Assembly (NCBI GenBank): GCA_035221665.1
Contig: CM069160.1
Span: forward strand, 6,944,001-7,008,000
Direction of reading: 5' to 3'
Length of the DNA: 64,000 bases
DNA from: Okamejei kenojei
Lineage: Eukaryota
Made by a program: the position numbers and the translations under genes. Every line of letters starts with the position of its first letter. The first letter of the stretch is position 1. The notes beneath the pieces were generated by a model. The model ran no database searches. It saw only the letters and a program-made list of their open reading frames with translations, and was not told the origin of the DNA. Shown one piece after another: positions 6,066 to 60,500 of the stretch.

Positions 6066-6679
6066 ACGTTACAATTTCCCGGCGGGTCACCGTGAGGTTG
6101 TGTGACTGACACTTACTCCGCTCCTGCAGTTCCCGGACGGTTCCCGGGATTAACGGGCGCCGGGTCTGCTCCCGTGTCCATCAGGCGATTGTCCAGACCG
6201 TGTGGAATATGAGAATGCATCCGGTCCTGTAGAACCGGTGGTGATCCCGCTGCACAGGCACCGACGGTCAGCCTCGGCTTCCACCGCTGCCCGCCCGCCC
6301 CCGCGCCCACGGTTGGACTGCTCACAGACCCCGTCCCATCGGTCGGTCTGTGGCTAGTTTGGCGCGATTCCCCGCCGCTCTCCAGGCCATTTCACCACTT
6401 CAACAATCTCCCGGCGGCTCAGTGCAGTTTGTGCGGCGGACAATCTATCGGGTCCGAGCGCCGGGAGGGTTCCCGGGGTGAACGTGCGCCGGGAGCGTCA
6501 ATGGAATCGCAGAGGTTGACGTGGAAACGCGAAACTCCCTAAACACCGGTCTGGTATAATCCGGGGCACACGGGCAGCTCAGTGTCACGCACACGGCTGG
6601 AGGGGGCGTCGGAGCAGAGACAGCGGGAGCAGGTGGAAGGAGGGGGGGGCCGGGTCTGTTTTCCTTCGTGTCCGTTGCC

Positions 6680-7235
6680 AGGTGGGACGGGTGTCCGTGG
6701 CTGGTGTCTGGGTCAGATGGTTGCTGGGTCCCGGGGTCGGGTTGTCTGGTGGTCTGAGTCTGTGCCCACAAGCAACAGCCCCTCCCCCCCCGGTTGCCGG
6801 GTATAACCGGGTCTGGGGGGTGGGCTGGGTGGGACTGGGGGTCTGGTCTCGGGAGTCTGGGTCTGGGTCTGGGTCCTGGGTTCGTGGTCTGTATATGTGT
6901 GTGTCAGTGTCTGGGTCTGGGTCCGGGTCCGGGTCTGAGTCCTGGTCTGGTTCTGGGTCTGGGTATGGGTCCGTGTGTGGGTCTGGTCTGTCTGGGTCCT
7001 GGGACAGGGTGGGTCTGGGTCTGGGTCTGGGTCTGGGTCTGGGTCCGGGCCTGGGTCTGTGTCTGGGTCTGGGTCTGGGACCTGGTCTGGGTCCGGGTCT
7101 GAGTCTGGGTCTGGATGTGGATGTGGGTGTGAGTGTGGGTGTGGGTGTGGGTCCGGGTCTTTGCCTGTGCCTGGGTGCCTGGTCTGGGTCTGGGTCTGGG
7201 TCTGGTCGCGTCTGGTCCGGTGGATCGGGGTCTGT
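6680..7235. repeat. (GGGTCT)n degenerate hexamer repeat
   Basis: Directly visible; it explains the GS-, DP- and TQ-rich spurious ORFs. Confidence 0.9.
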
Positions 7236-7254
7236 GCCGGCCACCCGTCCCACT

Positions 7255-8346
7255 CAACATGGCGGAGGTGTACTGCAGCTGGTAGAGGATGATGGAGCCC
7301 AGGCTCCCACTGGTGACGCTGGCCTCGCCGAGCAGCAGCCCTCCGTAGCACAGCACACACACCTTCAGCAGCAGCCCCGAGAGCTGCAGGAGGCAAGAGC
7401 AGCACCGGGGCACCAGCCCGGCCACCCCAACCCCAGAGAAACACCCCTCACCCCCAGAGAATCACCCCTCACCCCCTCAACTCCAGAGAATCACCCCTCA
7501 CCCCCCACAGCCCGATTTCCCCTCAACCCTCAACCCCAGAGAATCACTCCCCCACCCCACCGGCCGCCCACCACCTCACCCCCTCACCCCCTCACCCCCA
7601 GAGAATCACCCTTCACCCCCCCCCCCTCCGCCCAACCACAACCCAATAGAAACACACCCAGATGCTACTACTGCAGACGCAGACGTACTTTCCCCCGGAC
7701 GCAGTCGCCCCTTCTGCAGACGCCCCTCCCACAGATGACCCTCTCCCAGACACAGAAGCCCCAACACAGACATCTCTCCTCCAGTCGCAGACGTACTTCC
7801 CCCTCCCGCAGACACACGTCTGTCTGACGCCCCTCCGCCAGATGCCGACGCCCCCCTTCCATGCTCACCAGCCGAGGACTGGACCACGGAGACAGCTACA
7901 AGGAGGAAGCGTCTGAGATCTGGTCGCAGACAGGACAGCAGTCTGGAGACGGAGGCGGTGGCGTGCATCTGCCCAGTGACTGAGCCCCCGTCTGGGACAG
8001 GAAGCGCTGGGCCACGACCAGCCCCAGGGCGGCGACCAGGTAGGTGGGGGCCAGGCGGGTGATGGGAGGGCGGGCAGGAGCTCGGTGTGGGTGGAGCCCG
8101 CGGCAGTGCCAGGCTGGCGTAGGTGGGTAGCAGCAGGCAGCAGGTGGCCAGTGCCGGCCACAGCTCGGCTAGACGGCTGCCCCCCAGACGGACCAGCGGC
8201 CGCAGGCAGATGCACCACCCCCCCTCCCCCCACAGCCAGACCTGCAACAGCGGCCCCACCCCCCACAGCCGCAGCGCCCCGCTCAGCCCGCAACTGACCG
8301 TCACATCCAACATGGCCAGTGGCAGTAGGAACACTGGCAACGCCAT
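7255..8346 (-). pseudogene. TAP1: TAP1 (ABCB2 peptide transporter) relic: exon 1 (8346-7869) and exon 6 (7383-7255) only
   Basis: Exon 1 runs MALPVFLLPLAMLDV...ATASVSRLLSCLRPDLRRFLLVAVSVVQSSAG|gtgag (phase-1 donor), compared with human TAP1 [30 protein letters not shown]|E as recalled. Exon 6 follows a cctgcag acceptor: 129 bp encoding LSGLLLKVCVLCYGGLLLGEASVTSGSLGSIILYQLQYTSAML, aligning without gaps to [43 protein letters not shown]. Its donor GT is one base off. No other TAP exons were seen. Confidence 0.82.
7428..7815. repeat. Short tandem repeats (CCCCAGAGAATCACCCCTCA-like and CGCAGACGTACTTCCCC-like) between the TAP1 exons
   Basis: Directly visible repeated units. Confidence 0.7.
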
Positions 8347-8779
8347 CCTCTCCTGCATCACAGGCAGCGCGTCACTGGCAGTGCCCACACTCCACCCACA
8401 CAGCACCACCAACCCTCTGCCCACCTCCCACTCCCCCGGCCTGCCATTCCCAACCGTTTATGCACAGGGCAGGTTTACAGGGATATGGGCCACGCGTATA
8501 TGTGAATCGTTTCCTTTGATACAGCTCCAAATACAATAACAAATAAAGAGCTGGAGGAGCCAGCGGAGCAGGGAGCGTCCCAACCCTTCACCAGATGCCC
8601 CTCTGTGTTGAACAACATGGAGGAGACACAGGGAACTGCAGGTGTTGGAATCTGGAGCAAAACACAAAGTGCTGGAGGAACGCAGCGAGTCAGGCTGCAA
8701 TGGGGGAGGGAATGGACAGATGACGCTCTGGGTCGGGACCCTTCTTCAGATATCAGTCTTTCAGGTTTCACATCCAGAG

Positions 8780-10899: not shown

Positions 10900-10957
10900 A
10901 CTGCCCCCCTACCTTTCTCCTTGTATTCCTTCCCCTCTCCACTCTCCCACGTCTCTC

Positions 10958-11004
<47 letters not shown>

Positions 11005-29818: not shown

Positions 29819-32800
29819 ATGGCTTCGAAAGAGCATGTCGACAGTTTAACCGAGGAGATAATTTGTCACCTCTGCCTGGATTTCTTCACCGATCCGGTGT
29901 CACTAGAGTGTGAGCACAACTTCTGCCGCTCCTGTATCACACAGAGTTGGGACAAGGAGGGGAGAAACTCCTGCCCGGAATGTAGAGAGGAGTTTACAGA
30001 CCGCACCCTCAGGGTGAATCGGGCCCTGGCGAGACTGTCTGAGAAATTTCGAACACTGAGCCTGAATCGGACAGAGAAGGAAAGTAAACTTCAGTGCGAG
30101 GAACATCAGGAAGAAGTGAAGCTGTTTTGTGAAACTGACAAGAAGCTGATCTGTGTGGTTTGTGCAGCTGGGCGGGAGCACAAGTCTCACAGCTTGATGC
30201 CGGTTGAAGAAGCTGTCGAAACCTACAAGGTAAAAGCAAGCCGATTTTTGATCGAATCATTGTTTAATCCTGTCTTTATCATCTAACACTTTCATTCTCT
30301 GATTCCCAAACACAATCCCAGGATCAGGTTAAAGATTCCATCGAATTTCTAAAAATAAACAAATCAGTGATCCAACAAATGGAGCAGCAACAGAAACAGA
30401 AGATTTCTAAAGTTCTGGTGAGGCTTTCCAGTTTCGATTTCCTGATCTTTTGTAGATTTGATCCGTGCGATGTGTGTAATAATAGGGCAGCGCAGTGACA
30501 CAAGTAGTTCTCGTGAGCGGGTTCGATCCTGACCTCGGGTGTTGCCCGTGTGGTTCACGCCTTCTCTCTGTGACCGCATCGAACGCCTTCCAACCCCAAT
30601 ACATGCTGGTTCAAAGATCCTAGAAACATAGAACATAGTTGCAGGAGTAGGCTATTCGACCCTCCGAGCCAGCACCGCCATTCAATATAATCATGGCTGA
30701 TCATCCAAAATCAGTACCCGTTCCTGCTTTTTCCCCATATCCCTTGATTCAATTGGTGCTAAGAACTAAATCTAACTCTGTCTTGAAAACATCCAGTGAA
30801 TTGACCTCCACTGCCTTCCGTGGCTGAGAATTCCACAAATTCATCACTCATCTCCGTTCATAAAGACCCACCACTTATTCTTAAATTGTGACCCCTGGTT
30901 CTGGATTCCCCCCCAACATCGGCAACATTTTTCCTGCATCTAGCTTGTCTAATGCCTTAAGAATTTAATGTTTCTCTAAGATACCCTCTCATCCTTCTAA
31001 ATTCCAACGAACACAAGCCCAGTCGACCCATTCCTTCATCATATGTCAGTCCCACCATCCTGGTAATTAACCTGATGAACCTACGCTGCACCCTCAAGAG
31101 CAAGAATGTCCTTCCCCAAATTAGGAGAAGAAAACTGCACATAATACTCCAGGTGTGGTCTCACCAGGGCGCTGTACAATTGCAGCAGGACATCCTTGCT
31201 CCTTGACCTCCTCGGGCAGTCACGGTGGCGCAGCGGTAGAGTTGCTGCCTTACAGCGAATGCAGCGCCGAATACCCAATCCTGACTACGGGTGCTGTCTG
31301 TACGGAGTTTGTACATTCTCCCCGTGACCTGCGTGGGTTTTCACCGAGATCTTCGGTTTCCTTCCACACTCCAAAGACGTACAGGTTTGTAGGTTAATTG
31401 GCTTGGTAAATGTAAATGTTGATTGGTTTGGTAAAACAGATTGTTTCCGTGCTGTATCTCTAAACTAAACTAAACTCAAATCCTCTCCCTATGAAGGCCA
31501 ACGCTATGATTAGCTTCCTTCACTGCATGCTTACATTCTGTGCCTGATGTACAAGTAAACCCAGGTCTCATTGCACCTTCCCTTTTCCTAATCTAACATC
31601 AATTGAATGTGAAAATGGTATTGACCCGAAACATCACCCATTCCCACTCTCCTGGGGTGGGGGGGGGGGGGGAACGAAGGGCAATGGGGACCGGGCGTGG
31701 GGGGAACTGTTGGGTGGGTGGTACAAAATGGTGAGCGGCGTGCTTTGTAACTTTGTCAGCGCCGTAGGTGATTGCTATTTGTATACATTGTGTTTGCAAG
31801 TAAATAATCCCACTGTGCATAGTCACATGTGACAATAACGTTTTCCTATTCTTATTATCCACATTGTACTGCATCTGTCATGCATCTGCCCACTCAGACA
31901 ACCTACGCGAGTCAGCCTGCAGCCTCATAGCATCCTCCTCGCAGCTTACACAGCCGCCCAGCTTTGTGTCATCCGCAAACGTGGAGATGTTACATTTAAT
32001 TCCCTCGTCAAAAAATATATTGTAAATTACTGGGGTCCAAACACTGAACATTGCGGCACCCCCAGATTCAATTGCCGACTGTAATTATCCCTGCAAAAGT
32101 GGGCGGTGGATGGATAAATGGAAAATAATGGGTACGTGAAAAGGAATAGGCAGCAGGGAATTGTATTGGGGGTAGAGGATTGATGGGTTATAAGATTACC
32201 CTCACGATATTTCAGAAGCATTTAGAGAATTGCCAATGCAAATATAATCTGTACCGAACAAATATAGAAAGATATAAACATAGAAAATAGGTGCAGGAGG
32301 AGGTCATTCGGCCCTTCGAGCCAGCACCGCCATTCATTGCGATCATGGCTGATCGTCCCCAATCAATAACCCGTGCCTCCCTTATCCCCATATCAATTGA
32401 TTCCACTAGCCCCCAGAGCTCTATCTAACTCTCTTAAATGTATCCAGTGATTTGGCATCCACTGCCATCTGTGGCAGGGAATTCCACAAATTCCCAACCC
32501 TCTGGGTGAAAAAGATTGTTCTCACCTTAGTCTTAAATGGCCTCCCCTTTATTCTAAGAATGTGGCCCCTGGTTCTGGACTCGCCCAACACTGCGAACAT
32601 TTTCCTGCATCTAGCTTGTCCAGTCCTTTTATAATTAGATATGTTTCTGTAAGATACCCCCGCATCCTTCTAAACGCCAGTGAATACAAGCCTAGTCTTT
32701 TCAATCTTTCCTAATATGACAGTCCCTCCATCCCAGGGATCAATCTCACGAACCTACGCTGTACTGCCACAATCACAAGGATGTCCTTCCTCAAATTAGG

Positions 32801-35800
32801 AGACCAAACCTTTACACAATACTCCAGATGTGGTCTTACCAGAACCCTATACAACTGCGGAAGAACCGCTTTATTCCTATACTGAAATCCTCTTGTTATG
32901 AAGGCCAACATTCCATTAGCTTTCTTCACTGCCTGCTGTACCTGCACGCCAACTTTCAGTGATGTGTGTACAAGGACACCCAGGTCTCGCTGTACCTCCC
33001 CCTTACTTAACCTAACCCCATTGAGATAATAATCTTCCCCCTTGTATTTGCCGCAAAAATGGATAACCTCACATGTATGTATGTTATACTGCATCTGCCT
33101 CGAATCTGCCCACTCACTCAACCTGTCCAGGTCACTCTGCAACCTCCTAACATCATCTTCACAGCTCACACTGCCACCCAGCTTTGTGTCATCCGCAAAC
33201 TTGCTTGTGTTGCTCCTAATTCCCTCTTCCAAATCATTAATATGTCACAGTCAAAGTCGTGAGGAAACACAATCAGTGACATTATATATTCATCTTCACC
33301 TTTCATTTCACAGGAACAGTCACTCAAACTTCAGTCCAAGGTTACATCCCAATTTGCTGAACAGCACAAGATTCTCACTGAGAAAGAGCAGCGCGCACTG
33401 GCAGATATCCGAGAGGAAGAGAATAATATTCTAAATACAATGGAGAATAATCTTGGAGGGATTCAAGAGAATTTAAAATATATTCAGGAGGAACTCCTAA
33501 AGTTGCAACAACAGATGGACCAAAAAGACAGTCTGGTGTTTCTGAAGGTGAGGGGTCACACTACAGTTTGGAGAAATGAAAGTGCGCAGTCACAAAATGG
33601 TGGGTGACATTTTAGAAATAAATGCTGCATTTACCAGTAATTCAGAACTGTGTAAATGTTCCCTCTGTTCAAGATGTTGTTGTTCCCAAACTAATTGTAT
33701 AATCCCGTATAGTCTATGGGATCTCAAGACTGCGTGGACGGAATGTAGAGAGGTGTTTATATTCTGTCGAGTTTAGAACAATGAAAGGTGATCCTATATC
33801 TGATCCCAAGGTCCACGATGGCAGTACATCTCTGGGATTCTCCAACCAAGAGACTCTGAGAGGTTTAACATGTTAGACGTATTTAAACCAGAGGGAAATT
33901 CGGGAAATTGTAATCGTAGGGAATGGGGCAAAGAGGAGGAGTTCAGTCCTCGGCTAGATAAGCCATGACCACATTGTGGGGATTAACATTGACATCTAGA
34001 ACGTGGCGCGCACATCAGATTGATTATCGCGGAACGGGCGAACCCTCACCGGGGGGCGCCGGAGGGGAGCGCTCCGTTCGCTGGCCCGCGGCAGCCTGAA
34101 GCCGCGGTTTGCGGAGCTCCAGCCGGCGCAGTGTCCGCAGCCTGGGATCCCTCGTTGGGGACCCGGGAGGAGAAGAGCTCCGACCGCCGGCCCGCGGCCA
34201 ACTTCTACCGCGAGCGCGGCGGGGACTTACCATCCTGAGCGGGGTCCCTAACCGGGGACCAATGGAGAGGAACTCCGACCGCCGGCCCTGCGGTCTGCGG
34301 TGTTTCTGGCTACGGCGCGGCGGGAACTTTAGATCTCCGACCGCCGGCCTGTAGCCTACACCAACCTGAAGCCGCGGTCTCCGGTGGGGAGGCATCGATT
34401 CAGGACTTATCTGGACCTACCTTGTCTACGCATCTGGAAGTCCGCAGCGGCGACTGCGGAGGGTTGAGGTCCCGACCACAGGGGAAATGGAGGAGGACTG
34501 ACCAAATGTTGTGCCATCCACCGCAGTGAGGTGGATATTTGGTGGATATTTGTGTAAATTTTTTATTGTGTTTTTGTGTGTTTTTTTTTCATTGTACCAC
34601 TGCTGGCACATTCATTTCACTTGCACTTTATGTGCAAGTGACGAATAAAACTGATTGTTTTATTGATTGATTGATTGATCTATATCCGGTTCCCATCAGC
34701 AGTGGGTGGTCACCATGGTGGAATTTGTCCACCTTGTTTCACCATTCTATATCATACACAGGCCATTCGGCCCATCCTATCCAGTCAAGTTTTCTGCTCC
34801 ACTCATCATCCCTTCCATCTACCCTCCACACCCGCTAACAATACCACGAATTCCAGCAGCCCTAATGTGTTTATCCCGCTCTCACTTAAAATTATCTCTG
34901 CTGTTGGCTTCAGTCCCCCCAATGCAAGTGAGGTCCATGTTCTCATGACTGCATTCCTTTCGGTTTGTGTTGAATACCATGCCACATTTCAGCTTTGATT
35001 TTTGGGTTCCCCACATGTACATATATTATTTCACCCCCAGCCATTTAAGTCCACTGATAATCTTAAATCCTATCTCATCATTCCTGACATGTTCGCCAGA
35101 TAAATTCCCAGGACCTGCCCAGTCATTGCATTGAGTTCTGTGCAAGAAGGAACTGTAGATGTTGGTTTAAACCGAAGATAGACACAATAAGCTGTAGTAA
35201 CTCAGCGGGACAAGCAGCATCTCTGGAGAGAAAGAATGGCTGATGTTTCGGGTCGAGATCCGAAGTCTGAAGAATGATCTTGACCCGAAAAGTCACCCCC
35301 TCCTTCTCACAAGAGATGGTGCCTGTCCCGCTGAGTTACTCCAGCTTTTTGTGTCTTTCTTTGCATGGAGTTCCGTCCTCTCAGTTATGGCGTCATTCTC
35401 GTGAACATTCCACGTGTTTTCCCCCATCGTCCTACATTTCTGCGGCAATATCCGCTTTCTATCTACATGACAGCAGCGATAAGAGTTGGGAAATGGGAAT
35501 TATCACAATGTTATAGGAATTTGCTGAAATTCCCGCTGTCGGGATGAGGACGGTCTATCTCAGTCAATTGAAATTTGTGTTTTATTTCTTTCAGGAGGAA
35601 GCTAGTCGCAAGCAAAGGTAGGACAACCTCTTGATGGAAACATTGTAAGGCTTTGTTGAGCAGCCGAAAAAATGTCTAAAACTCAGTTTATAACTTGCTG
35701 TTAAATATTTGCAGGGTTCGTGACGAAGCCAAACCACTGTCGGTGGTAGATGATAACTTGCTGATTGAAAAATTTGAAAATCCTTTTTTGTACAACACGG

Positions 35801-38800
35801 TATTGGCAGAAACACCTGATGCCATCAAGCAAGGTAAATATTATACCTTTTCTGTTGTTCTTGTTTCTGACATCTTTAAGTTATGCGTAGATGCAAACAT
35901 TCATGGTATTTTGGACTGAAGGGAAATTGAAGATTTGATCTTCCACCAAACACAGCTGCAGAAAAGCATCACAAGGTCAGAGAGCGATGTCGCCAGAAAC
36001 AGGCCCTTTGACACAACATGACCATGCCAACCAAATTGCCCAGCCAAGCTAGTCCCACTTGCCTGAGTCTGACACATATTCTTCCAAGTATTTCTTATTC
36101 ATGTCTCTACCCAACAGTCTGTTGTAGCTGCCTTGACCACTTCCTCTGTCAGTTCGTTCCATGCGTGCAACAAAGGTTAAACTGTTATAATGGGTGACTT
36201 CAATCTACATATAGATTGGGTGAATCAAATAAGCAGGGGTGCTGAGGAAGAGGATTTATTGGAATGTTTGCGGGATAGTTTTCTAAACCAACATTTGGAG
36301 GAACCAACGAGAGAGCAGGCTATTCTAGACTGGGTATTGAGTAATGAGGAAGGGTTAGTTAGTAGTCTTGTTGTGCGTGGCCCCTTGGGCAAGAGTGACC
36401 ATAATATGGTTGAGTTCATTAGGATGGAGAGTGACATAATTAGTTCAGAAACAAGGGTTCTCAACTTAAAGAAAGGTAACTTTGAGGATATGAGACGTGA
36501 ATTGGCCAAGAAAGATTGGCAATTGATTCTTAAAGGGTTTACGGTGGATGTGCAACGGAAGGCATTTAAAGACTGCATGGATGAACTACAACAATTGTTC
36601 ATCCCAGTTTGGCAAAATAATAAATCAGGGAAGGTGGTGCATCCGTGGATAACAAGGGAAATCAGGGATAGTATCAAAACAAAAGATGAAGCTTACAAAT
36701 TAAACTGAAAAAGCAGCCTACCAGAGGACTGGGAGAAATTCCAGAAGAGTCCAGAAGAGGAGGACAAAGGGCTTAATTAGGAAAGGGAAAAGAGATTATG
36801 AAATGAAATTGGCAGGGAACATAAAAACTGACTGCAAAAGTTTTTATAGATATGTGAAGAGGAAAAGATTAGTTAAAACAAATGTAGGTCCCTTGCAGTC
36901 AGAAACGGGTGAGTTGATCATGGGTAACAACGACATGGCAGACCAATTTAATAACTACTTTGGTTCTGTCTTCACTAAGGAAGACATAAATAATCTGCCG
37001 GAAATAGCAGGGGACCGGGGGTCAAATGAGATGGAGGCACTGAGTGAAATCCAGGTTAGCCGCGAAGTGGCGTTAGTTAAATTGAATGTATTAAAGGCCG
37101 ATAAATCCCCAGGGCCAGATAGGCTGCATCCCAGAGTACTTAAGGAAGTAGCCCCAGAAATAGTGGATTCATTAGTGATAATTTTTCTAAACTCTTTAGA
37201 TTCAGGAGTAGTTCCTGAGGATTGGGGGGTAGCTAATGCAACCCCACCATTTTAAAAGGGGGGAGAGAGAAAACGGGGAATTACAGACCAGTTAGTCTAA
37301 CATCGGTAGGGGGGAAACTGATAGAGTCAGTTATTAAAGATGAGATAGCAGCACATTTGGAAAGTGGTGAAATCATTGGCCAAAGTCGGCACGGATCTAG
37401 GAAAGGTAAATCATGTCTGACGAAGCTTATATAATTTTTCCAGGATGTAATTAGTAGAGTGGATAAGGGAAAACCAGTGGATGTGTTATATCTTGACTTT
37501 CAGATGCCTTTCGACAAGGTCCCACATAAGAAATTCGTATACAAACTTAAAGCACACGCTATTGGCGGTTCAGTATTGATGAGGATAGGGAACTGGCTGG
37601 CAGACAGGAAGCAAAGAGTAGGAGTAAACGTGTCCTTTTCAGAATGGCAGGCAGTGACTAGTGGCACACCCCTGCTATTTACAATATATATTAATGATTT
37701 GGACGAGGGAATTGAATGCAACATCTCCAAGTTTGCGGATGACACGAAGCTGGGGGCAGTGTTAGCTGTGAGGAGGATACTATGAGTCTGCAAGGTAACT
37801 TGGATAGGCTGGGTGAGTGTGCAAAGGCATGGCAGATGCAGTATAATGTGGATAAATGTGAGGTTATCCACTTTGGTGGCAAAAGCAGGAAGTAGACCCT
37901 TATCTGAATGGTGGCCGATTGGGAAAAATGGGAGATGCAACGAGACTTGGGTGTCATGGTACACCAGTCATTGAAAGTAGACATGCAGGTGCAGCAGGCA
38001 GTGAAGAAAGCGAATGGTATGTTAGCATTCATAGTAAAATGATTTGAATATTGGAGCAGAGATGTTCTACTGCAGTTGTACAGGGTCTTGGTGAGACAAC
38101 ACCGGGAGTATTGCGTACCATTTTGATCTCCAAATCTGAGGAAATACATTCTTGCCATAGAGGGAGTACAGAGAAAGTTCACCAGACTTATTCCTGGGAT
38201 GTCGGGACTTTCATATGAAGAAAGACTGGAAAGACTCGGCTTGTGCTCGCTAGAATTTAGAAGATTGAGGGGGGATCTTCTAGAAACTTACAAAAGTTTT
38301 AAGCCGTTGGACAGGCTAAATGCAGGAAGATTGTTCCCGATGTTGGGGAAGTCCAGAACAAGGGGTCACAGTTTAAGGATAAGGGGGAAATTTTTTTAGG
38401 ACCGAGATGAGAAAAACATTTTACACACAGAGAGTGGTGAATCTCTGGAATTTAACTTCGGAGTCACGTGAGTGACTACGTGAAGAAGCCCCGCCTGGCG
38501 CTAGAACGGCATTACGTCGACGCTGACGGCAGAAGCAAGAGCTGCAGAGGCAGCTCCTCGCAGCGGTCGGAACGGACCCGCAGGTAAGTGCAAGGAAAAA
38601 TTAGGGGACGTTCTAAAAAAGACGTTACGCTGGTAGAACCAGCAAAAATAAAAGTAAAAATTCAAAAAATCAGAGTCACGCTGGCGTACTGATCCAGCCT
38701 AGATTATAAAAATTAAAAATGGATAAGTCTCAAAGAAAGATTTCGCGGGTAAAAAGATCATCACGGGGAGAAGCTAAAGAGTCGGGACAAGAGATTAGTG

Positions 38801-41800
38801 CGTATCCGGTTCCGATACCGGTGGCCGCTGATTCACCCGTTAGTGAGACTATAATTTCTCCAGAAATACAAACCACGGAGGAAAATGTTCCTAGAAAAAG
38901 TAAAAAGAAATCCGTGAGGCCAGTGGTTTCTGATGATGACTCTGATAATGAAAGTCCTCCGGATAATAAAGCTATATGGCTTAAAATGGAACATATGGAG
39001 AAAGTGCTCCGAAATATTATGAGACAAGGGTCAAAGTACCCAGAAATTTCCCAAAATGACCCTGAGGGGTTTGAATATCCAGAAAATGGCTATGTGCCAA
39101 ATTGGGAATTTGAAACTCCAGACCCAGGACTAAGGGTGGAGGAAGTCTCATTGGATGAAATTCCAGGTGTATCAGGGCTGCAAAAGTCAGACCCTGCAAG
39201 TGGTGATGTGGATTATGAGTGCACACCACAAATAAAAAAAAGAAGAGGCCATATGTGCCTGATATGGCAAAAGATTTTGCTATACCTGAAGGAAGTGGTG
39301 AGGCTATGGAAGAAAACCTAGCTGCCAGTATTAATTAGATGGTATCTCACCAACTTCAAGATTCTGTGATGGTTGAAACAGCAGAATTATATAAAACACC
39401 GGAAAATTGCACCTCATTAAAGGTACCTACGGTTATTCCGTCTATATGGACACCTATGACTCCAGTCATGAGAGGACAAGAAATAAGATTTCAAAGAATC
39501 CTCAAACTGATTTCAGCTGCCATTACTGCTTTTGGAAGACAAATGGAAGGGTCGGAAATGGTTAAAATCCAAAGAGATACTTTGGGCTTATTGTGCAATT
39601 CCTTTTATGAAATTAATTGTATGAGGAAAATTGCGATTCGGCCCATATTTCATCCAAGATTTGCAGGTCTGTGTCGATCAAGTGTTGTTCAAGCACCTGG
39701 TTATCTATTTGGAGAGAACCTGCCTAAACAAATAAGAGAAATGGATGAAGAGGCTAAATCTATTAGCCACATGAGACCTTTCGTTTTTGGACAAAAAAGG
39801 TATTTTTTGTCAAGGAGGGGATTTGATTTTGGAAACAGATGCAGGAATATGATAAGAAAATATTACCATCCAACACAGCCTAATGTTCACCCGTATACGG
39901 GGAGAAGGAGCCCACCACGTTCATATGGAGAGGTACAAAAACTTTATTCTATTCTTAAAGAAACTGTGGACAAATCTCCAGTTGGAGGGAGATTACAAAT
40001 GTTTTATGATGAATGGCTTGCCATTACATCTGACCGGTTTATTTTACAAATAGTTACAGGAGCTACTATAACATTTAATGCTTATGTTTTCTGCTATTGA
40101 GGAAGCAGAAGTTAATGCGGAAATTGACAAATTGTTTAAAAAAGGTGTTATTGAAAAAACTGTTGAGCATAAACACCAATTTGTGTCAAATATCTTTCCG
40201 AGAAATAAAAAAGATGGTGGTTGCAGAATTATTCTGGACCTTACAAACTTTAATACATTTGTCGAGTATAAACATTTCAAGATGGAAACGTTCAACACTG
40301 CAAAACATTTGATATTAGCAGGTTGTTATATGGCTACAATTGATTTAAAGGATGCGTACTATTCAGTACCAATACATCGATTTTTTCGAAGTTATTTAAA
40401 ATTTAATTGGCTGGGACAGCTGTGGCAATTTAAAGCTTTACCAAATGGCTTAAGTTCAGCTCCCAGGCTCTTCACAAAGCTGTTGAAACCAGCTTTAGCG
40501 CAATTAAGAGCACAAAAGCACATCATTATGGCTTATCTGGATGACATTTTAGTTGTCAATAATAATCAGGAATCAGCTGGAAAATCAGTTTCAGCAACTA
40601 GAACTTTGTTTGAAAAATTAGGTTCCTTGATTCATCCAATTAAGTCCCAGCTGCAGCCAGCACAGTCAATTAACTATCTAGGGTTTGTGATCAACTCAGT
40701 CACCATGTTAGTAACTTTGCCAATGTTGATGATATTTTAACGGTATGTTGGGCCTTATTCACAAACCTTATCCCTCCATCCGAGAAGTAGCGAAGGTTAT
40801 TGGTAAACTAGTAGCAGCATTTCCTGCAGTAGAATTTGGTCCATTACATTACCAAAACCTTCAAAGGGACAAAATAAGAGCTCTAAAAAAGCGAACAGGC
40901 CCATTTTGATAGGTCACAAAAGAAGCTTTATTGAATTGCAATGGTGGATTGAAAATGCTACACAAGACAATACAGTGAAGTTTTTTTACAACCAGATGCA
41001 AGTGCTCTCGGATGGGGGGCGACAGATTGGACAACACAACACAGACACATGGGTGGAGTGAACCCAGGATTGTGGTGGCAGACAACAGATCAAGGGTGTT
41101 TAAGGACAACACAGAATGGACGTTGAACCCAGTAGTTTTCAGTAAAATTGTGATTCAATATGGGTTACCAGATGTTGATGTGTTTGCATCAAGATTAAAT
41201 CATCAATTGCCTAAATATGTGTCTTGGGAACCAGATCCAGATGCAGTAGCAGTAGATGCGTTTTCACTACATTGGGGGAATATGTTCTTTTATGCTTTCC
41301 CTCCATTTGCTCTGGTTCAGCAATGTCTGAAGAAAATAGAACAAGATTCTGGCACAGGATTATTGGTGATTCCAAATTGGCCGACACAACGGTGGTTCCC
41401 GTTGATGTTAAATATGATTAAAGAACCATATATGTCAATTCCTAGCAGCATTGATTTGTTAATTAAACCAGTAACTAAAGAAATTCATCCATTACATGTT
41501 TATATGAATTTGTTAATCTGCAGGTTTTGACCAGACCACTACAAGGGCTTGGATTGTCGGATAGAACTATGGATGTTATAGTCGCATCATGGCGAGATAG
41601 CACTCAGAAACAATATATGACACATATAAAGAAATGGGAAGTTTTTGTAGACAATCAAATATATCTTATCATACTGTGAACATTTTAAACATATTGGAGT
41701 TCCTTGCTGAGTTGCATTTTGAGCAAGCACTTAAGTTATAGTGCTATTAATAGTGCGCATAGTGCTTTATCATCCTATTTAGGTCAAATTTCTGACCAGG

Positions 41801-44800
41801 AATCAATTGGATCACATCCATTAATATCCAGATTTATGAAAGGAATCTTTAACAAAGATCCACCCAAACTAAGATATACAGAAATTTTGGATGTCAGCAT
41901 TATACTTACTTTACTTAGGCAATGGACTCCAATCGAAGTTATATCTTTGGAAATGTTAACATTTAAATTAATAATGTTAATGACATTGGTATCAGCACAA
42001 AGGGTGCAAGCATTACAAATGCTACGTTTAGATTGTATGCATGTGGCTTCAGATAACATTGTGTTTTACGTTTACGATCCGATCAAACAAAGCAGACCAG
42101 GGAGAACTGGAGCGAAGGTAATGTTTCAAGCTTACCTTATTGATCCAACGTTGTGTGTAGTTAGACATTTGACTCAATATATAAAAATTACCAAGACTCT
42201 TCATGGTGATGAAAAAGCGTTAATAATTACGCATAGGAAACCACACACAAAAGCATCAGTACAAACAATTTCAAGGTGGTTAAAACAGGTGTTACTATTA
42301 GCAGGAGTAGACACTGATGTGTTCAAATCTCACTCCACTAGGGCAGCAGCTACGTCCGCGACGAAGTTACAGGACGTACCACTCGAACACATTTTAGAAA
42401 CCGCAGGGTGGTGTAAAGAAGAAACTTTTTCAAAGTTCTACGATAAACCTGTCCGCACAATGACAGGCTTTGGACACGCGGTGTTGGGTTCACTATAATC
42501 ACCTGCTTTGTTTCGCTATCGATTTATATTATTGATGATGTTATCACTTATATCTTATATCACTTTGTAATGGTTTCCCCAGATGTGGAAAAGGGGTTAT
42601 TATATGTTCTTTTGTCATTAAAATTATGAAAAGAAACTAAAACTGATCTGGTAAAAGGTTATTTACTCATGTATGTGTTGACCTTGCCGGACTGTCGTAT
42701 GGATTGATTCTACGACATAAAAAACACAGAAGCTTCAAAATCTTCACGTAGTCACTCACGTGACTCCGAAGCAAAATAGTAAGATTAAACGAGAACTTAC
42801 CAGTTCGAAGTTTGATCGTTATTTTATGAGGAGTAACGATGAAGGATTACGTGCCCTCCACTCCCGACCCTCATAAAATAAATGATCATCTGGTAGTTCT
42901 AAATCTATGTTGAGCCTTACTATCTTACTCCAGCTATTATCTTCTGTGTTTTTCATCCCGCTGCTTTGAAGTATGCCGTTCTAGCGCCAGGCGGGGCTTC
43001 TTCACGTAATCCCTCATCGTTACTCCTCATAAAATAACGATCAAACTTCGAACTGGTAAGTTCTCGTTTAATCTTACTATTCTCTACCACAGAAGGTAGT
43101 TGAGGCGACTTCATTGGCTATATTTAAGAGGGAGTTAGATGTGGTCCTTGTGGCTAAAGGGATCAAGGGGTATGGAGAGAAGGCAGGTATAGGATAGTGA
43201 GTTGGATGATCAGCCATGATCATATTGAATGGCGGTGCAGACTCGAGGGGTATACTCCTGCACCTATTTTCTATCTTTCTATTCATACACTATGCATTGA
43301 CTGAAAAGGCTACTCCTTTTTACTGTTTCCACTCTCACCTTACACTGATGCACTCTGGGTTTAGACTCTCCTATCTTGGGTAATATACTGTGGATCTTCA
43401 CCTTGTCTGTGCACCTTATATAGATTTCATACACATCTATCAAATCACACGGATGGGCTCCAAAGATAAATGTCCCTGCCTGTCCAACGTCTCCTTATAA
43501 TCCAGCTCTTCAGACCTGATGAAATTATTGTAAATCATTTACCACCCTCTCTAATTTGCTAACGACCTTATTGTGTCAAACACTGTATTTAATGTCCTGA
43601 CCTATGAAATAATGAGGGACAAACACACTCTTCACCACCCTGTCTGTCACTGTTGCATCTTCCATGGCACAGTGTACCTGCAGCCTGAGATCTCTCAGTT
43701 CTATAAAGCTCCCCTTTACTGTGTATGTCCTGACCTGGCCTCTGTCAGCAAAGTGCATCACCTCACCTTCACATGAATAAATCCCACCTGCCGTTCCTGA
43801 GCCTATTGGCCCAGTTTACAGGGATCCTATTTACTCTCACATAATTTTCTTCACTCCCCACAATGTCACCAATTTTGGTTTCATCTGCAAACTTATTAAC
43901 CGTGCAACCTGCATACACCGCCAATCGTTTATATAAATAAGAAACAACAGTGGACTCTGTCTCCAGTCTGGAAAACGACCCATTACCAACATCCTCTGTC
44001 TGCGACCTTCAGGTAAATGTAGTGTTCCATCGGCCAATTCACCCCGGATTCCATGAGATCCAACCTTCCAGAGCGGCCTCTCATGCGGTGTGTAGAAGTT
44101 GTGTCTCGCAGAGGGCAGTGAATATCTGGAATATTGTGCCCAAGATAAAAGCTCAGTTATTGGATATCTGTAACTTGGCTACAAATTAATATTTGATAGA
44201 TCTACAAATTAAGATTATGGGGAAAATCACTCAGAAGAGGAATTGGTGCCAGCTTCGATCAGCAATGATCACATTGACTGGAGGGGCAAGCCTGAGGAGC
44301 GGATCATAATCCTGCTCCTGTTTTCTTGTTTTCCTTGCTCCTGTGTACCGATAAATTGACAGACGTGACACAGAGGAAAATGGAGCAAAGATTAACAATA
44401 TTTACCCTCCCCCTCCCCCTTCTCCCCTTCCCCCCTCCTCTCTCCCCCTTCACTCCTCTCCCATTCTCCCCTCCCTCCCCTCTCCCCACCACCTCCCCCT
44501 ACTCCCCCTACTCCCCCACCACCCTCTCATCCCCCTCCCCCCTCCCCCCCGTGTGTGGGCGGTGGTTAGTGTGCGTGTGAAGCCGCAGCCCCCCACCACG
44601 TCGCAACCGTACGTTGAGGGTACGGAACACAGCGGTCTCCCCTCTCTCCCCTCTCTCTACCCAGCCACCCCCTAGCTCCCTCTCCCCCCCTCTACCCCCC
44701 CCCCCCCCCGTGTGTGTGTGTGTGTGTGAGGTGGTTAGTGTGCGTGTGAAGCCGTAGCACACCCCCCTCCCCAACCGTGCGTTGGGGAACAGACCCAGCG

Positions 44801-47729
44801 GGTCTGCATTTGGTCTCTCCCCTCCTCTCTCTTCCTCTCTTTCTCTCTCCGCTCTCTCTCTCTCCCCTCNNNNNNNNNNNNNNNNNNNNNNNNNNNNNNN
44901 NNNNNNNNNNNNNNNNNNNNNNNNNNNNNNNNNNNNNNNNNNNNNNNNNNNNNNNNNNNNNNNNNNNNNNNNNNNNNNNNNNNNNNNNNNNNNNNNNNNN
45001 NNNNNNNNNNNNNNGGGTGAGTGAGTAGACTGGGCTTGTGCACGCGAGCGTTTGGGGGTATTGGAGGAGGTCTCAGTGAAACACAAAGTTCTTAAAGGGC
45101 TCAGTGGGCGGGATGCAGGGAGGATGTTTCCCCTGTCAGAGGGGTCTGGAGAATGGGCACTATCAGAATGTGGGCTGCACCATGTAGGACAGAGATACGG
45201 AGACATTACTGCACGAAGAGACTGGGGAACCTTTGAAATTTCCTGCACCAGTGGCTGTGGAGACTCAGTCATTCAGTGCTCTTGTAGTGGAGAGCCATGG
45301 TTGTACATTACAGAATCAGGCCCTTCGGCCCATCGTCTACATGGCCACCTTTTTTCCAGCGATGCTAATCGATTTGCCCCCATTACATCGCTATTCCTCT
45401 AAACCTCACCTATATGTGCCTCAAATAGTGATTATACCTCACTCCACCACCTCCTCTGTAGCATGTTCCAGATATCGCCCACTCCCAGTGTAAAGAACAC
45501 TTCCAACTCAGATCAACTTTAAATTTCCTTGCTGTAAAGATAAACATGCACTCTCTTGATCTGATATCGCTGCATGCGAATACGGTTTTGATAATCTACC
45601 CTATATCCTGCTGCAGATTTTGACTACCTTCCCCGCTATCCACAATTTTTGCGTCCTCCACAGACTTACTTGTCACACCTCCTACATCCATGAAAATATA
45701 ACATGAACAGCTACGGTTACAGCACCGATCGCTGCTCCACTCCACCAGTCACAGATATCCAAGTATGGAAATCATCCATCTACCGCTACCTTCTACCTCC
45801 AACCACCAAGCCAATTTTGGATCCGTTTTACCAGCTCGCCTTCGATCCCACCTGCCTTTCCTTTCTGGACCAGCCTTACACTGTCAAGTTTCACATTGTC
45901 AAGTCTCTCGGTGAAGTTCTTTATTGGTTTACAATGATATCAGTGTGCTCTTGGTTGTACACACCCATCAAATCCACCTCTGAACCCCGTATCTTTTCAG
46001 TGACCCGACAAGCGCAAGTCTCTGTTAAGGTTCATGTCTTAAAACAACTCACAATAAGTTAGGTACACCAACACAAGCTTGACTGATCATTAGCCAGCGA
46101 GATTGCCAGGGATACAAAGTAAAGTATACAACAGATACTTAACCGTCCTGAGCCGCCACTCTAATGAACAAAGACATACAGCATCTATTTATTATATTTT
46201 GGTAACATAGTCACATGTTTATACAGAGTAGCAACAATGACGTCTAACACAAATAAATCACAGAGTACACCCATTCAAAGTATTCTTGTTAGTAATACAA
46301 AAGTTGTCATCTTGTGGTTCTATTAATCACAAACTGTTGATCACACACATCAAAACAACAGGAACTTAGTCAACATTTACAATTCTGTCTTAGCAATGTA
46401 ATCATGATGTCAGCTACCAACTAGAAGACTTGTGTTTACAGAAGCTGTCACCTTCTCAGGAAATACATACACTCTCACAATTGAAATGGTTTTTTTCTTT
46501 GGGCATGACAGGAAGCAGCTTGAATGTAGGCCTCTAACTTCCTGATTACCCAGCTCTTGTACAGCTCAGAATTACAAAGCTATAATTTTCTCAGAGCCCA
46601 AATAAGTCAAATTCATCTTTACTTAATCAATTCTAATTATAGAATATGTTGCTATTAACTAGGATATTGTCATCTCCACCCATTCTGTCTAACACCCGAT
46701 CAGTCAAGCTCTGCTTCCTTCCATGGTCCAAGCCACCCCTCCCTCTCTCTCACCCTCCACTCAAAGAAACAGGGGCAGGTTATCTGGCCCCTCATGTCTA
46801 CTCTCATTCATTAAGATCATGGCAACTACACCCCACAACTCTACCTCCTCTTTAACAACCTCAAATTGCCACTCGCCTCAATATCCTCTTCTCCGGCATG
46901 CCTCCATGTCTGAATAGCCCGCTTCATTTCTCCACCCCCACCGCAATCCCCCTCACTCTCCGCACTCGTCCACCATCCCCCACCTCACGAAATTACCCTC
47001 TCCGTCCCGAATAAAAACTCTGTGACAGAAGACTTTTATCCACCTGATGTAGTTGGGGTGAAACTCGGGGCAGGTAGTCACTTGTCCGCCCGCCTGTGCC
47101 AGGGGCCGAGCGACTTCTCCCCCGGTCCCGGGGCCGCGCTGCCCGATTCTCCCCCCGATCCCCGGGGACTCTCTGATTCTCTGCTTCTCTTCCCAGTGTC
47201 CGTCACTTTGGATGTGGAAACAGCGCATCCGCTGCTCGAGGTATCTGAGGATCGAATGAGGGTGAGACTGAGCGGGACTAGGAGGCGTCTCCCTGACACT
47301 GGGAAGAGGTTTACAGGCTGGCGGTGTACGCTGGGATCGGAGGGATTCACATCGGGGAGACATTACTGGGAGGTGGAGGTGGCGGGGAGTCGGCGCTGGA
47401 GTCTGGGAGTCGCCGCAGAATCTGTGGAGCGGAAGAAACGGGACACACTGACCCCGGATACTGGAGTCTGGAGCATCGGGCGGTGGGGTGACGGGTTTGT
47501 TGCATTCACCTCCCTTCCATCCACTCTTCCCGCCCGTTCCTTCCCCGGGAGGGTGGGAATTTATCTCAGTTACGAGTCCGGGACTGTTTCATTTTACGAT
47601 GCGGACACCAAGTCCCATCTCCACACCTTCACTGGGAATAAATTCACGGAGAAACTTTATCCTTTCTTCGAGCCTTGGCATGAAGACCAGTGGCTGAGAA
47701 TCTGCTCCGGTTCCGCTCCGGGTGTGTAA
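29819..47729 (+). CDS. TRIM E3 ubiquitin ligase (RING / B-box 2 / coiled coil / PRY-SPRY; TRIM39/TRIM69/NF7-like), 471 aa. Exons 29819-30229, 30322-30417, 33314-33547, 35595-35617, 35715-35833, 47197-47729
   Basis: All introns are GT-AG with compatible phases (0,0,0,2,1). Exon lengths 411+96+234+23+119+533 = 1416 nt form an open frame ending in TAA. C3HC4 [21 protein letters not shown]; B-box CEEH..C..D..CVVC..H..H; [41 protein letters not shown]. Confidence 0.93.
30430..30442 (+). promoter_or_regulatory. Consensus ISRE (AGTTTCGATTTCC) at the start of TRIM intron 2
   Basis: Exact fit to AGTTTCNNTTTCY, 12 nt after the exon 2 boundary. Confidence 0.45.
30620..33243 (-). mobile_element. Two CR1 3' fragments in TRIM intron 2 (about 30620-32060, split by a SINE; 32270-33243)
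   Basis: [10 protein letters not shown] and LVRPHLEY peptides; (ATAGAAAC)n tails on the + strand. Confidence 0.85.
31214..31478 (+). mobile_element. HE1/V-SINE-type SINE nested in a CR1
   Basis: GGTGGCGCAGCGGTAGAGTTGCTGCC head; (CTAAA)n tail. Confidence 0.85.
34015..34680 (+). mobile_element. GC-rich non-autonomous retroposon-like repeat with internal repeats
   Basis: CTCCGACCGCCGGCC occurs three times; 3' hairpin TCACTTGCAC..GTGCAAGTGA, then AATAAA and a (TTGA)n tail. Confidence 0.6.
38719..40100 (+). pseudogene. DIRS gag-like ORF (frameshifted: 38719-39321 and 39339-40100)
   Basis: Position in the element; [15 protein letters not shown] and [11 protein letters not shown] motifs typical of DIRS gag; ends in the PVGGRL start of pol. 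Confidence 0.75.
40078..40740 (+). pseudogene. DIRS reverse transcriptase (RNase H region downstream is deleted or frameshifted)
   Basis: [46 protein letters not shown]. Confidence 0.92.
41012..41530 (+). pseudogene. DIRS DNA N6-adenine methyltransferase-like domain
   Basis: [47 protein letters not shown]. Confidence 0.85.
41704..42498 (+). CDS. DIRS tyrosine recombinase (N-terminus frameshifted)
   Basis: SAQRVQAL (catalytic R), IKQSRPG (K), HSTRAAATS (HxxR), [11 protein letters not shown] (Y). Confidence 0.9.
   Translation: MLSCILSKHLSYSAINSAHSALSSYLGQISDQESIGSHPLISRFMKGIFNKDPPKLRYTEILDVSIILTLLRQWTPIEVISLEMLTFKLIMLMTLVSAQRVQALQMLRLDCMHVASDNIVFYVYDPIKQSRPGRTGAKVMFQAYLIDPTLCVVRHLTQYIKITKTLHGDEKALIITHRKPHTKASVQTISRWLKQVLLLAGVDTDVFKSHSTRAAATSATKLQDVPLEHILETAGWCKEETFSKFYDKPVRTMTGFGHAVLGSL
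44870..45014. other. Assembly gap
   Basis: N run. Confidence 1.
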
Positions 47730-57067: not shown

Positions 57068-57552
57068 GAGCATAGAACATAGAACAGTACAGCACAAGAA
57101 CAGGCTCTTTGATCCACAATGATTGTGCTGAACATGATGCCAAGACCAATTCTTATCTCCTTGCACATAATCCATATCCTTCCATTCCCTGCACATTCAT
57201 GCGCCTATGTAAAAGTCTATTTAATGCCACTACCATAGCTGCTTCCACCACCACCCCCGGCAGCACATTCCAGTCACTCATCACCCTTGGCGTAAAACAC
57301 TTGCCCTGCACATCTTTTTTAATCTTTGCCACTCATTGCAAAGCTATACCTGCTCTTATTTGATATTTCCTTCCTGGGTAAAATGTCTGATAGTCTACTC
57401 TATCTCTACCCCTCACAGTCTTATATATTACTGTCAGGTCTCCCCTCAATCCCCGACATTCCAGAGAAAACAATCCAAGTCTGTCTAACTTTTCCCTGTC
57501 ACCAATACCCCACTAATCCATGCATCATTCCGGTAGACCTCCTCTGCATCCC
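57068..57552 (-). mobile_element. Old CR1 3' fragment directly downstream of, and overlapping, the class I stop codon
   Basis: Minus strand GGGATGCAGAGGAGGTCTACCGGAATGATGCATGGATTAG resembles CR1 'VQRRFTRMLPGL'; tail (CATAGAA)n on the + strand. Confidence 0.7.
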
Positions 57553-60500
57553 AAAGGAAGCTGATTGTGCTTCATGGTCAATGCAGTCCTCTCCTGGTCT
57601 CTGCTGTTGTCAGCTGGTCCCTGTTCATTTAGAGTTTTTCTCCTTTTCTCCTTCATCCAGCAACCAATTCCAACGATGATCCCCACGAGAATAAGAGGAA
57701 TGATTACAGCTCCAGTCACGATCCTAATCTTTATATCTTCATTCGCTGCGCTCTCTGTAGTCATATATAGTGCAATTTAAAAATTTATTGATCAATAACA
57801 ACTTTGTAATTATTTTATTATCTACATTAAACTAGCACTGTTCATATCTAATTACAAAGTAATAAAGTTTTTGATTTATGTAATTGTCCAGACGATAGAT
57901 GCGTTTTAAAAAATCGATGAAAATCTTTAAAATACATATTAGCATTGTGGCTTTGTGATTTTATCTGCAGCATTTAATTATGAATTTAAAGAATGAAGTA
58001 CGTCAGAAATAGATGACTATTTGCAGTGTAGCTGTCAACAAGGCTATTTTCTTATGTTGACAATTGTTATTATAACAAATAAAAGTTAACCCATTCATAG
58101 TTGATAACACTTCAAAGGTTTTAAACTGTTGATAGTTTAACAATGGTTAACATTACTGCCTATTCGTACTGACCAGCAATTTTAACCATGTCAGCTTCGA
58201 CCTGGTGTGAAGGGCCAAGCTTACTCTAACTTCTCTCTAACTTCTACAGGTGCACAACAGAGAGCATGCTGAGGTTGCATCGTGGCTTGGTTCAGCAACT
58301 TGAGTGCCCAGGAGCGAAAAAGACTACAAAAAGTAGTAACCACTGCCCAGTCCATCATCGGCTCTGACCTCCCTACCATCGAGGAATCTATCGCAGTCGC
58401 TGCCTCAAAAGGGATGGCAGCATCATCAAGGACCCACATCATTCTGGCCACACACCCATCTCCCTGCTACTTTCAGGGAGAAGGTACAGGAGCCTGAAGA
58501 TTGCAACGTCAAGGTTCAGAAACAGCCTCTTCCCCACAGCCATTCAACTCAACACAACTCTGAACATTAATAACCCATTTTCTCTTTATTTGCACTTTAT
58601 CTATTATTGATTCATGTGTGTATAAATTTATATAATGCTATATGGACACACTGATATGTTCTGTATTCATGCCTACCATATTCTCTTGTGCTGAAGCAAA
58701 GGAAGAATTTAATTGTCTTATCTGGGACACATGACAATAAACTCTTTTGAACTCTTGATCTTGAGTTCTTTGCAGAGGTCTTGTCTGGAACAAATAAGTC
58801 AGCGACAGAATAGGTGCTGCTACTTCAGACTGATAATGGGGTCGGTTATGGTATCACTATTAGCCTTTTGTGTAACTAGCTACTATCATAAAATTAGTTT
58901 CTCCCAGTGACTGCGTGGGTTTTGTCTGGGTGCTCCCGTTTCCTCCCACCCTCCAAAGAAATACGGGCTTAAAGGATAATTGGCTTATGTAAAATTGTAA
59001 ATTGTCCCCAGTGTGTTGGATAGTGTAAATGTACGGGATGATCATTGTTCGGCAAGGACTCAGTGAGCTGAAGAGCCTGTTTCTGCACCATATCTCTAAA
59101 GGGGAAAGTCTAAATCCACAGATTAGGTAAGAGTGTGAGTCGACGCTGTTATGGCAGTCCAGGAGGTTTATGGTCTCAAGTGATCAGACTCATTGACTTG
59201 CCACTTACCCTGTGGAACATTGACTCCCTGCAGCATAGTTGCATGCTCGATGTAGCAGGAGAATGTTGCCACATCTTCTCCACTCAGCTGAATTGTATTC
59301 TTCAGCTGGTAAGTCCCATCCGAATTAGGCAACAGATGACTGGATTCAGACCAGGGGACCCCCTCACCATCTTTCAGCCACGTTACATCGATGGTCGGTG
59401 GGTAGAAGCCTGTGACAAGGCACGAGAGCTTCAGTGATTGCGACCCATCACGTTTAATCCCAATAAACGCCTCAGGGGTTTCTGCAAGTAGAAGAAGCGT
59501 CAGAATCAGTGAAGATGAAGAAAAGCCTTGAATTGTAAGATCACTCCAACTCCCCTCTTTCCCTATCAGAGATTTTCTCTAGCTGAACAAAGTTTCCAGC
59601 CCAGACACAAAATGCTGGAGTAACTCAGCAGATGAGGCAGCATGTCTGGAGAGAAGGAATGCCCAGAGATGCTACCTGATCCACTGAGTTACTCCAACAT
59701 CTTCTATCTTCGGTGTAAACCATCATCTGCAGTTCTATCTTGCACAAGGTTTCCAACCTTTTCTCTTTTCATTTTGCATTTCTGACAAAACAACAAAACA
59801 TTTCGTTTTAATATCAATGACATGCTCTTTATCTTGGCTCCAGACTTTAGCTGACAGCGCAGGCGGAAGGGGAATGCAGTGCCCAATGGAGGAGTATAAC
59901 TCACCATTTGATTGATACTGTAGACAAGATTGCTTCTACTTGTTCATGAATCTCTGCTGAATAATAACACAATAATAATAACATATTCCAAGAGGGAATG
60001 GGAGGAAGAAGTTCTTCAACCAGAGAACTTGGATGTCACCATCCTAAGGAGTAATAGAGGAAAATGGAGAATCTGATTCGGTTTCTGATCAGCACGGCAA
60101 CAGACCCTTCAGACCACAAGGTTGGTGCTGAACATAAGGCCAAGATACATATCCCTCCATTTCCCGAATATCTACGTGACTGTGGATAGAGGACACTGGT
60201 GCAATATTTATCTTTCACTTGCACTTCCAACCCACTGGATCCATCTAAGAGGCACGTTGCCAGACAATTTACTGATACCCTCGCCCAAGAACAGAGTGGC
60301 GAAGCAGTCGAGCTACTGTCTTATAGCGCCAGAGACCCGGGTTTGTTACTAACTACGGGTGCTTGCCTTTACAGAGTGTGTACGTTCTACCTGTGACCTG
60401 CGTGGGTTTTATCCGAGATCTTCGGTTACCCCTCACACTCGAAAGACGTACAAATTTGTAGGTTAATTAGGTTGGTATTGATGCAAATTGTCCCTATTAT

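Follow-up and report, generated by a model that had tools for sequence, protein, structure and literature searches.

Introduction

TAP1 is required for classical class I loading. In the tammar wallaby, fragments of TAP1 are scattered between the nonclassical class I genes of an MHC segment that has been rearranged (PMC3179965), an arrangement like that of the skate locus analysed here. The TAP1 and TAP2 pseudogene fragments of the wallaby are BAC-verified and their intact paralogues are known, according to the available part of that report, whereas the skate has provided a single fragment. A second likeness comes from within the elasmobranchs, where LMP7 (PSMB8) of the nurse shark has one functional copy together with small-fragment pseudogenes; this is however a different gene, and TAP1 is listed as single copy in the accessible part of the same account (PMC1513397). 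Three TAP1 genes are annotated as such in lungfish (PMC10751288), and in salamanders whole duplicates of TAP1 are again annotated as genes (PMC7883663), while the two TAP1 records of the horn shark (P0005 and P0011) encode full-length proteins. All of these differ from the internally deleted remnant described below. As far as these sources go, the duplicates in lungfish, horn shark and salamander demonstrate that a genome can have more than one copy of TAP1. An earlier note on this DNA had implied some surprise at a departure from single copy, but duplicates and antigen-processing pseudogene fragments had already been described.

We have analysed a 64-kb stretch of DNA from the skate Okamejei kenojei, referred to as the window. 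Where TAP1 of the thorny skate (P0001) is full length, the window holds a remnant that is without exons 2-5 and has three frameshifts, a 9-nt loss and a shifted donor. We conclude that this is probably a duplicated, internally deleted and decaying pseudogene of TAP1, of the non-processed kind. A report of a TAP1 pseudogene in a skate was not found in the literature searched, most of it freely accessible papers. The word 'pseudogene' is absent from the main text of PMC10751288 in the form available, and that study left out the thorny skate, whose tap and MHC genes are on unplaced scaffolds.

Results

Two exons of TAP1 are present

The sequence nearest to the remnant is the TAP1-like protein P0001 of the thorny skate (Amblyraja radiata; 718 aa). 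In a frameshift-aware alignment 120 of 159 residues of exon 1 are identical to P0001, and in exon 6 the count is 32 of 42. Comparison of P0001 with the 64 kb by tblastn gave E = 1e-41 for exon 1 and 1e-14 for exon 6, both on the minus strand and at the positions given in the earlier note (Table 1), with the next match at 0.26. When 19 named TAP1 proteins were used, 18 matched exon 1 and 18 matched exon 6, the sole extra match (E = 0.03) falling within low-complexity DNA. A profile of the same 19 proteins was run over 2787 six-frame peptides of the window, and the remnant took ranks 1-3 (E = 1.7e-17, 2.1e-13 and 1.2), followed by a match at 2.3. The numbering of the exons, and the phases that we take the intact gene to have, follow human TAP1.

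Table 1. Coordinates of the TAP1 remnant, its spacer and neighbouring features, in positions of the window.
Feature	Position	Strand	Description
Damaged exon 6 donor	7252..7254	-	reads TTG/AGTGGG (slash, exon boundary); GT at 7253-7252
TAP1 exon 6 remnant	7255..7383	-	P0001 residues 381-423; 129 nt, 43 codons
3' part of spacer	7384..7620	-	21-53-bp GATTCTCT-containing array; acceptor CTGCAG; probable end of intron 5
Repeat-type switch zone	7616..7677	.	G11 run at 7616-7626 (minus strand); likely deletion junction
5' part of spacer	7650..7868	-	GTCTG/CGTC-rich short repeats, the last at ~7678; probable start of intron 1
TAP1 coding exon 1 remnant	7869..8346	-	478 nt; residues 1-164; ATG at 8346
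Frame-shifted middle of exon 1	7976..8106	-	three -1 breaks, at ~8106, ~8074 and ~7976
G-rich stretch with net 9-nt loss	8212..8226	-	loss at ~8223; residues 41-48 scrambled
Promoter-like module, four copies	13770-14020, 17572-17800, 21728-21960; 26690-26925	+, +, +; -	
TRIM gene, TRIM39/A33-like	29819..47729	+	six exons, 471 aa; five GT-AG introns; intact
Nonclassical MHC class I (class Ib) gene	57528..62099	-	alpha1, alpha2, alpha3 and TM exons intact

The exon 6 peptide matched residues 417-458 of human TAP1 in a search of PDB sequences (E = 3.9e-5). Neither TAP2 nor ABCB9, both of which were in the searched library, occurred among its 12 matches to E = 10, and in a large protein set its single match was P0001. 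The exon 1 peptide gave no PDB match to E = 10, either whole or as its last 35 residues, and the identity of exon 1 as TAP1 therefore rests on the named TAP1 records. Pfam gave no match for either peptide. A tree built from 206 columns and 19 rows, none of them TAP2 or ABCB9, places the remnant as sister to Amblyraja TAP1 (bootstrap 100%) inside the batoid TAP1 clade (100), with a branch length of 0.238 compared with 0.095 for the thorny skate (2.5x). The human match of exon 6 and the placement in the tree bear out the earlier assignment to TAP1, and descent of the remnant from TAP1 (ABCB2) is supported by these sequence comparisons.

Among the shark records, P0005 and P0011 of the horn shark are of the TAP1 type and are annotated as ABCB9. 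They are 96-98% identical in exon 1 and in exons 7-11, and 63% identical in exon 6. Shark exon 6 seems to exist in two motif types, which could possibly reflect a dimorphic TAP1 lineage.

The first coding exon is frameshifted and has lost an arginine

The exon 1 remnant covers TMD0, the linker and the start of core TM1. It had been taken for the end of TMD0, but it is the whole first coding exon, from Met1. The edges of the two exons are as in P0001 (SSAG/E and ../LSGLLLK, the slash marking the exon edge), and at 7868 exon 1 retains an undamaged donor of phase 1, GTGAGC, which lies 478 nt from the ATG at 8346. A second in-frame ATG is found upstream, at 8358. There is also an acceptor-like TGCAG/G at 8353-8358 on the minus strand, six bases before the ATG at 8346, which suggests a non-coding first exon upstream.

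Frameshift-aware alignment places three -1 breaks within exon 1, all of them within homopolymers of at least 2 nt, giving three frames and a sum of -3. The stretch RLAPTY...QRFL, which matches P0001 residues ~96-127, lies in another frame, and residues 84-128 as a whole are out of frame, affecting two of the four TMD0 helices. The hydrophobic segment does therefore lie off-frame from its flanks, as first noticed, but in place of a compensating pair of frameshifts there are three -1 breaks and the 9-nt loss. The hydropathy of the shifted stretch is -0.5 to -1.4, compared with +0.4 to +1.5 in P0001; hydrophobic TMD0 helices have become a hydrophilic stretch in an open frame. We considered whether compensating frameshifts might imply selection, and rejected this. 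The -1 events number three, hydrophobicity is lost, and when the shifted stretch is shuffled 65% of the results contain no stop, so that the openness of the shifted frame, expected at this composition, is not a signal of selection.

The 9-nt loss deletes Arg43, which is present in 18 of 18 other aligned TAP1 proteins, and Asp14 is retained. In human TAP1, D32 makes a salt bridge to tapasin and R64 is its lock partner, according to the available text of PMC4661472. Asp14 is likely to be the equivalent of D32, and from an offset of 21 residues Arg43 is the likely equivalent of R64. With the aspartate kept and the arginine deleted, the Asp/Arg lock of TMD0 for tapasin would be broken in the remnant.

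Exon 6 has a displaced donor

Exon 6 has nine derived substitutions and no internal indel. Its acceptor, CTGCAG, is good and of phase 0, and downstream of the 129 nt the donor GT is displaced by one base. Splice sites had been noted for both exons, and this holds for the exon 1 donor and the exon 6 acceptor but not for the exon 6 donor, which is one base off. The observation that direct splicing would be out of frame is upheld, as in-frame joining of exon 1 to exon 6 fails with a phase 1 donor and a phase 0 acceptor.

A 16-nt inverted repeat (15/16), with arms at 6682-6697 and 7238-7253, flanks a (GTCTGG)n array. Its core is unique in the window and was attained in 0 of 1000 block shuffles, a comparison made post hoc. 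One arm begins exactly at the shifted exon 6 GT, and the strand skew flips at the same place. The inverted repeat and the skew flip, both considered post hoc, raise the possibility that homology to TAP1 stops at exon 6.

A short gap-free spacer without exons 2-5 separates the two exons

Exon 1 lies 485 bp from exon 6, as reported before, and the spacer (7384-7868) contains no N. Exons 2-5 are absent both from the spacer and from the whole window, in agreement with the earlier reading. Within the spacer the frameshift-aware scores for exons 2-5 were 18-29, at or below shuffled maxima of 29-35, and no remnant of exons 2-5 or 7-11 exceeded the shuffles; exon 6 itself scored 34 against 29 in shuffles, which we take as noise. 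Over the 64 kb, tblastn with the 19 TAP1 proteins and the profile revealed no other TAP1 exon. With exons 2-5 absent, the six-helix transmembrane core encoded by exons 2-6 is incomplete.

The nucleotide-binding domain (exons 7-11) was not found in the 7.25 kb of the window that lie downstream. In the data available from PMC10751288, the annotated tap1 gene of the sawfish extends over 33,121 bp, that of the catshark over 69,820 bp and that of the white shark over 86,106 bp. Because intact genes span 33-86 kb and 7.25 kb of window is left, the absence of these exons is uninformative. The statement that they are not found is true for the window and provides no evidence of loss.

The two parts of the spacer differ in repeat type (Table 1) and share only a 10-nt word. 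The spacer has no match in the rest of the window, the longest shared word being 14 nt, and no dispersed repeat able to seed a collapse was found at the spacer within the window. We infer a single join of intron 1 to intron 5 near 7620-7677. The idea that the tandem repeats mark the breakpoint is plausible if refined to the switch of arrays at ~7620-7677 by the G11 run, although the word shared there is only 10 nt. Homologous recombination or collapse through a long shared repeat is not supported for the same reason, and in the lack of such a repeat end-joining or slippage is to be preferred over a homologous crossover. A retroposed origin was rejected because introns are present: both exons are intron-flanked, with donor, 485-bp spacer and acceptor all there.

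The damage resembles mutation more than sequencing error

The disabling lesions are three frameshifts, the 9-nt loss, the loss of exons and the donor shift. The alternative that fares best against a pseudogene is that they are artefacts, the locus being a functional TAP1 that was poorly polished and mis-assembled, with exons 2-5 dropped through a chimeric or collapsed join and exons 7-11 beyond the left edge of the window. We have sought to compare the damage with that expected from real decay and from error.

Conserved columns were defined over 10 elasmobranch TAP1 proteins. The remnant has private changes at 13 of 71 such columns, compared with 3 of 61 for the thorny skate (Fisher p = 0.03) and 7 of 158 for the class Ib gene of the window, used as a control (p = 0.0015); two of the 13 fall in the scrambled 41-48 zone. 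Substitutions at conserved columns are BLOSUM-negative in 7 of 12 cases in the remnant and in 1 of 7 in the class Ib control. Outside the 41-48 zone there are ~21 derived amino-acid changes, and 20 of the 21 need one base. The derived base changes include 10 transitions and 10 transversions, with 2 of CpG type. Seven of 20 copy a neighbouring base, where 39-44% is expected, and there is therefore no signature of homopolymer error. The damage is dominated by substitutions, with indel events in a ratio of 1 extra to 4 missing. Insertions dominate in the noisy patch at 13.8-16.1 kb, for which three comparisons with sister copies gave 48 extra and 10 missing events, and the two ratios differ (p = 0.007).

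Two further comparisons tell less. No frameshift or other indel occurs in the TRIM exons (1416 nt) or in those of the class Ib gene (about 1040 nt), but they are an unmatched control, because their GC content is about 50% whereas the remnant has 64-70% and lies in low-complexity DNA. The relative-rate excess of the remnant reaches p < 0.05 with one of six outgroups; the class Ib control deviates in the same direction in five of five, with p < 0.05 in two, and since the control behaves alike we rejected this test as a discriminator.

Several observations nevertheless favour a mis-assembled functional gene. The assembly of the window has four N gaps, with raw-read-like patches about 5-8 kb from the remnant, including that at 13.8-16.1 kb, and near-identical duplicate blocks lie by the gaps. 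The deletions of exon 1 are in base runs, errors cluster in GC-rich low-complexity DNA, the start, exon 1 donor and exon 6 acceptor are intact and the GC3 of the exons is still 0.86. One tap1 is annotated per MHC chromosome in three elasmobranchs and the MHC genes of skates are known to be difficult to assemble, according to the available parts of PMC10751288. No second skate TAP1 occurs among the 120 homologues listed. Yet an artefact would need five indel-type errors, ~21 substitutions concentrated at conserved columns and a gap-free drop of four exons to have occurred together. The preponderance of substitutions, with nine in an exon 6 that has no internal indel, the lack of a long repeat at the join and the class Ib/TRIM neighbourhood (below) all argue against it, and we consider a mis-assembled functional TAP1 unlikely.

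The neighbouring genes are a class Ib gene and a TRIM gene

The class I gene lies 49 kb from the TAP1 remnant. It matches Pfam MHC_I and C1-set and has no frameshift; it is identical at 300 of 344 positions (87%) to P0121 of the little skate (Leucoraja) and at 246 of 337 to P0122 of Pristis. A leader exon was not found in the window. The alpha2 domain is 65-89% identical in eight near-full matches from rays and sharks, and by these comparisons the gene is a member of a conserved elasmobranch lineage. By eye, alpha1 and alpha2 have signature motifs in common with sequences that carry the UGA label in the available part of PMC10751288, and the gene differs much from the little skate UGA given there. 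It may represent a sister lineage to UGA, which has been reported as CD1-like (PMC12562908, in the part available). Two records of the little skate on separate scaffolds suggest a duplication in skates. The TRIM gene encodes RING, B-box, coiled-coil and PRY-SPRY (B30.2) domains, and its introns contain several LINE pieces and a DIRS-like element.

An MHC origin of the window is supported by these intact class I and TRIM-B30.2 genes. The earlier note had proposed such an origin from the remnant, and the two genes back it independently. No TAP2, PSMB8, PSMB9, proteasome, ABC or second class I domain was found by Pfam in 148 of 160 candidate unmasked ORFs. The lack of these partner genes, which together with UAA accompany TAP1 in the class Ia cluster, is a weak argument because in the catshark the distance from tap1 is 40 kb for PSMB8 and 740 kb for TAP2 (PMC10751288, available part). 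In the same source, the sole sawfish gene with the product name of P0122 has TRIM39-like and A33-like genes around it at 13.96 Mb, and sawfish tap1 lies 1.5 kb from TAP2 at 17.20 Mb. Matched in this way by product name, the sawfish gene 3.2 Mb from tap1 is likely to be the class Ib orthologue. On the data available the neighbours in the window resemble a class Ib district rather than the class Ia cluster. Gene order varies across the elasmobranch MHC (PMC10751288, available part).

Discussion

The neighbourhood bears on a second alternative, that this is the orthologous TAP1 locus and has truly been deleted, either as a natural TAP1-null MHC haplotype or as a loss in the species. The lesions do look like real mutation, and other antigen-processing genes have been lost in plethodontid salamanders, according to the available part of PMC7883663. 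Against such a loss, five batoids, the thorny skate among them, have TAP1 records, of which four are full-length, and the neighbours, as far as the published maps allow, are unlike those of the class Ia cluster. A loss would also conflict with the requirement of classical class I loading for TAP1. We regard a true loss as very improbable. If the remnant were the sole TAP1 of its haplotype it would be far more important, and the intact class Ib neighbour would need no TAP.

Finally, the unspliced frame from the ATG at 8346, which is open to 7609, enters the spacer and comprises 246 codons with a scrambled TMD0 and neither core nor ATP-binding domain, might be read as a truncated TMD0-like protein and candidate tapasin-binding decoy that keeps Asp14, but its openness is expected by chance (above), the Arg partner is deleted, two of four TMD0 helices are out of frame, Pfam found no family in it and the best ESM Atlas match was 0.79, to hypothetical proteins only, and we give this hardly any credence.

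The proposal of a duplicated, internally deleted TAP1 thus remains the best reading: the absence of exons 2-5 stands, and we think the interpretation as a whole probably correct. In such a pseudogene a class Ia block bearing TAP1 would have been copied into a class Ib/TRIM district. One genomic deletion, joined at G-rich short repeats, would have removed exons 2-5 and fused the beginning of intron 1 with the last part of intron 5. Release from selection would have led to the three frameshifts, the 9-nt loss, the donor lesion and the ~21 amino-acid changes, the decay being young enough for GC3 to stay high. As judged from its sequence, the remnant would make no working transporter, having no in-frame splice, no core and a damaged TMD0.

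If this is right, the locus is one more relic of birth-and-death evolution in the MHC, apparently undescribed for TAP1 in skates. It would be the trace of a duplication by which class Ia DNA reached a class Ib/TRIM district, and TAP1 matches in skate assemblies could not always be taken for the functional locus.

Other elements in the window

The promoter-like module present in four copies (Table 1) contains GGGGATTTCC and GGTTTCAC, which we take to be kappaB-like and ISRE-like motifs, together with CCAAT and TGAGTCA. Behind the module come GCT repeats and a SINE, but the copies are not followed by a coding exon. A reading of the module (13.8-26.9 kb) as a leader peptide was rejected, as an ATG is present in one copy of the four. 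The region ~10950-16110 looks like uncorrected long reads; it consists of a C/T tract of low complexity and of a copy of the neighbouring repeats in which insertions are frequent. The blocks 16110-17052 and 20250-21150 are 97-98% identical over aligned bases and adjoin N gaps.

A CpG island at 5300-6900 has an observed/expected ratio of up to 1.04 and an internal duplication of ~330 bp. Its plus strand has GAAA-N3-GAAA, which is ISRE-like, at 6524 and a TATAA at 6556, and there was no Pfam match in any ORF scanned in the island (5.3-6.9 kb). Rfam and tRNA scans of the window returned 0 matches. A copy of a Tc1-family transposon on the minus strand (~4000-5330) has a stop within the transposase. 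The retroelement in the TRIM gene (~38450-43050), presumably of the DIRS type, has reverse transcriptase, adenine-methylase-like and tyrosine recombinase frames and a 79-nt terminal inverted match. An array at 49269-50055 comprises 79 copies of a 10-bp unit of the AGAGGGGTTT type, and a minisatellite at 56149-56817 has nine copies of a 73-bp unit.
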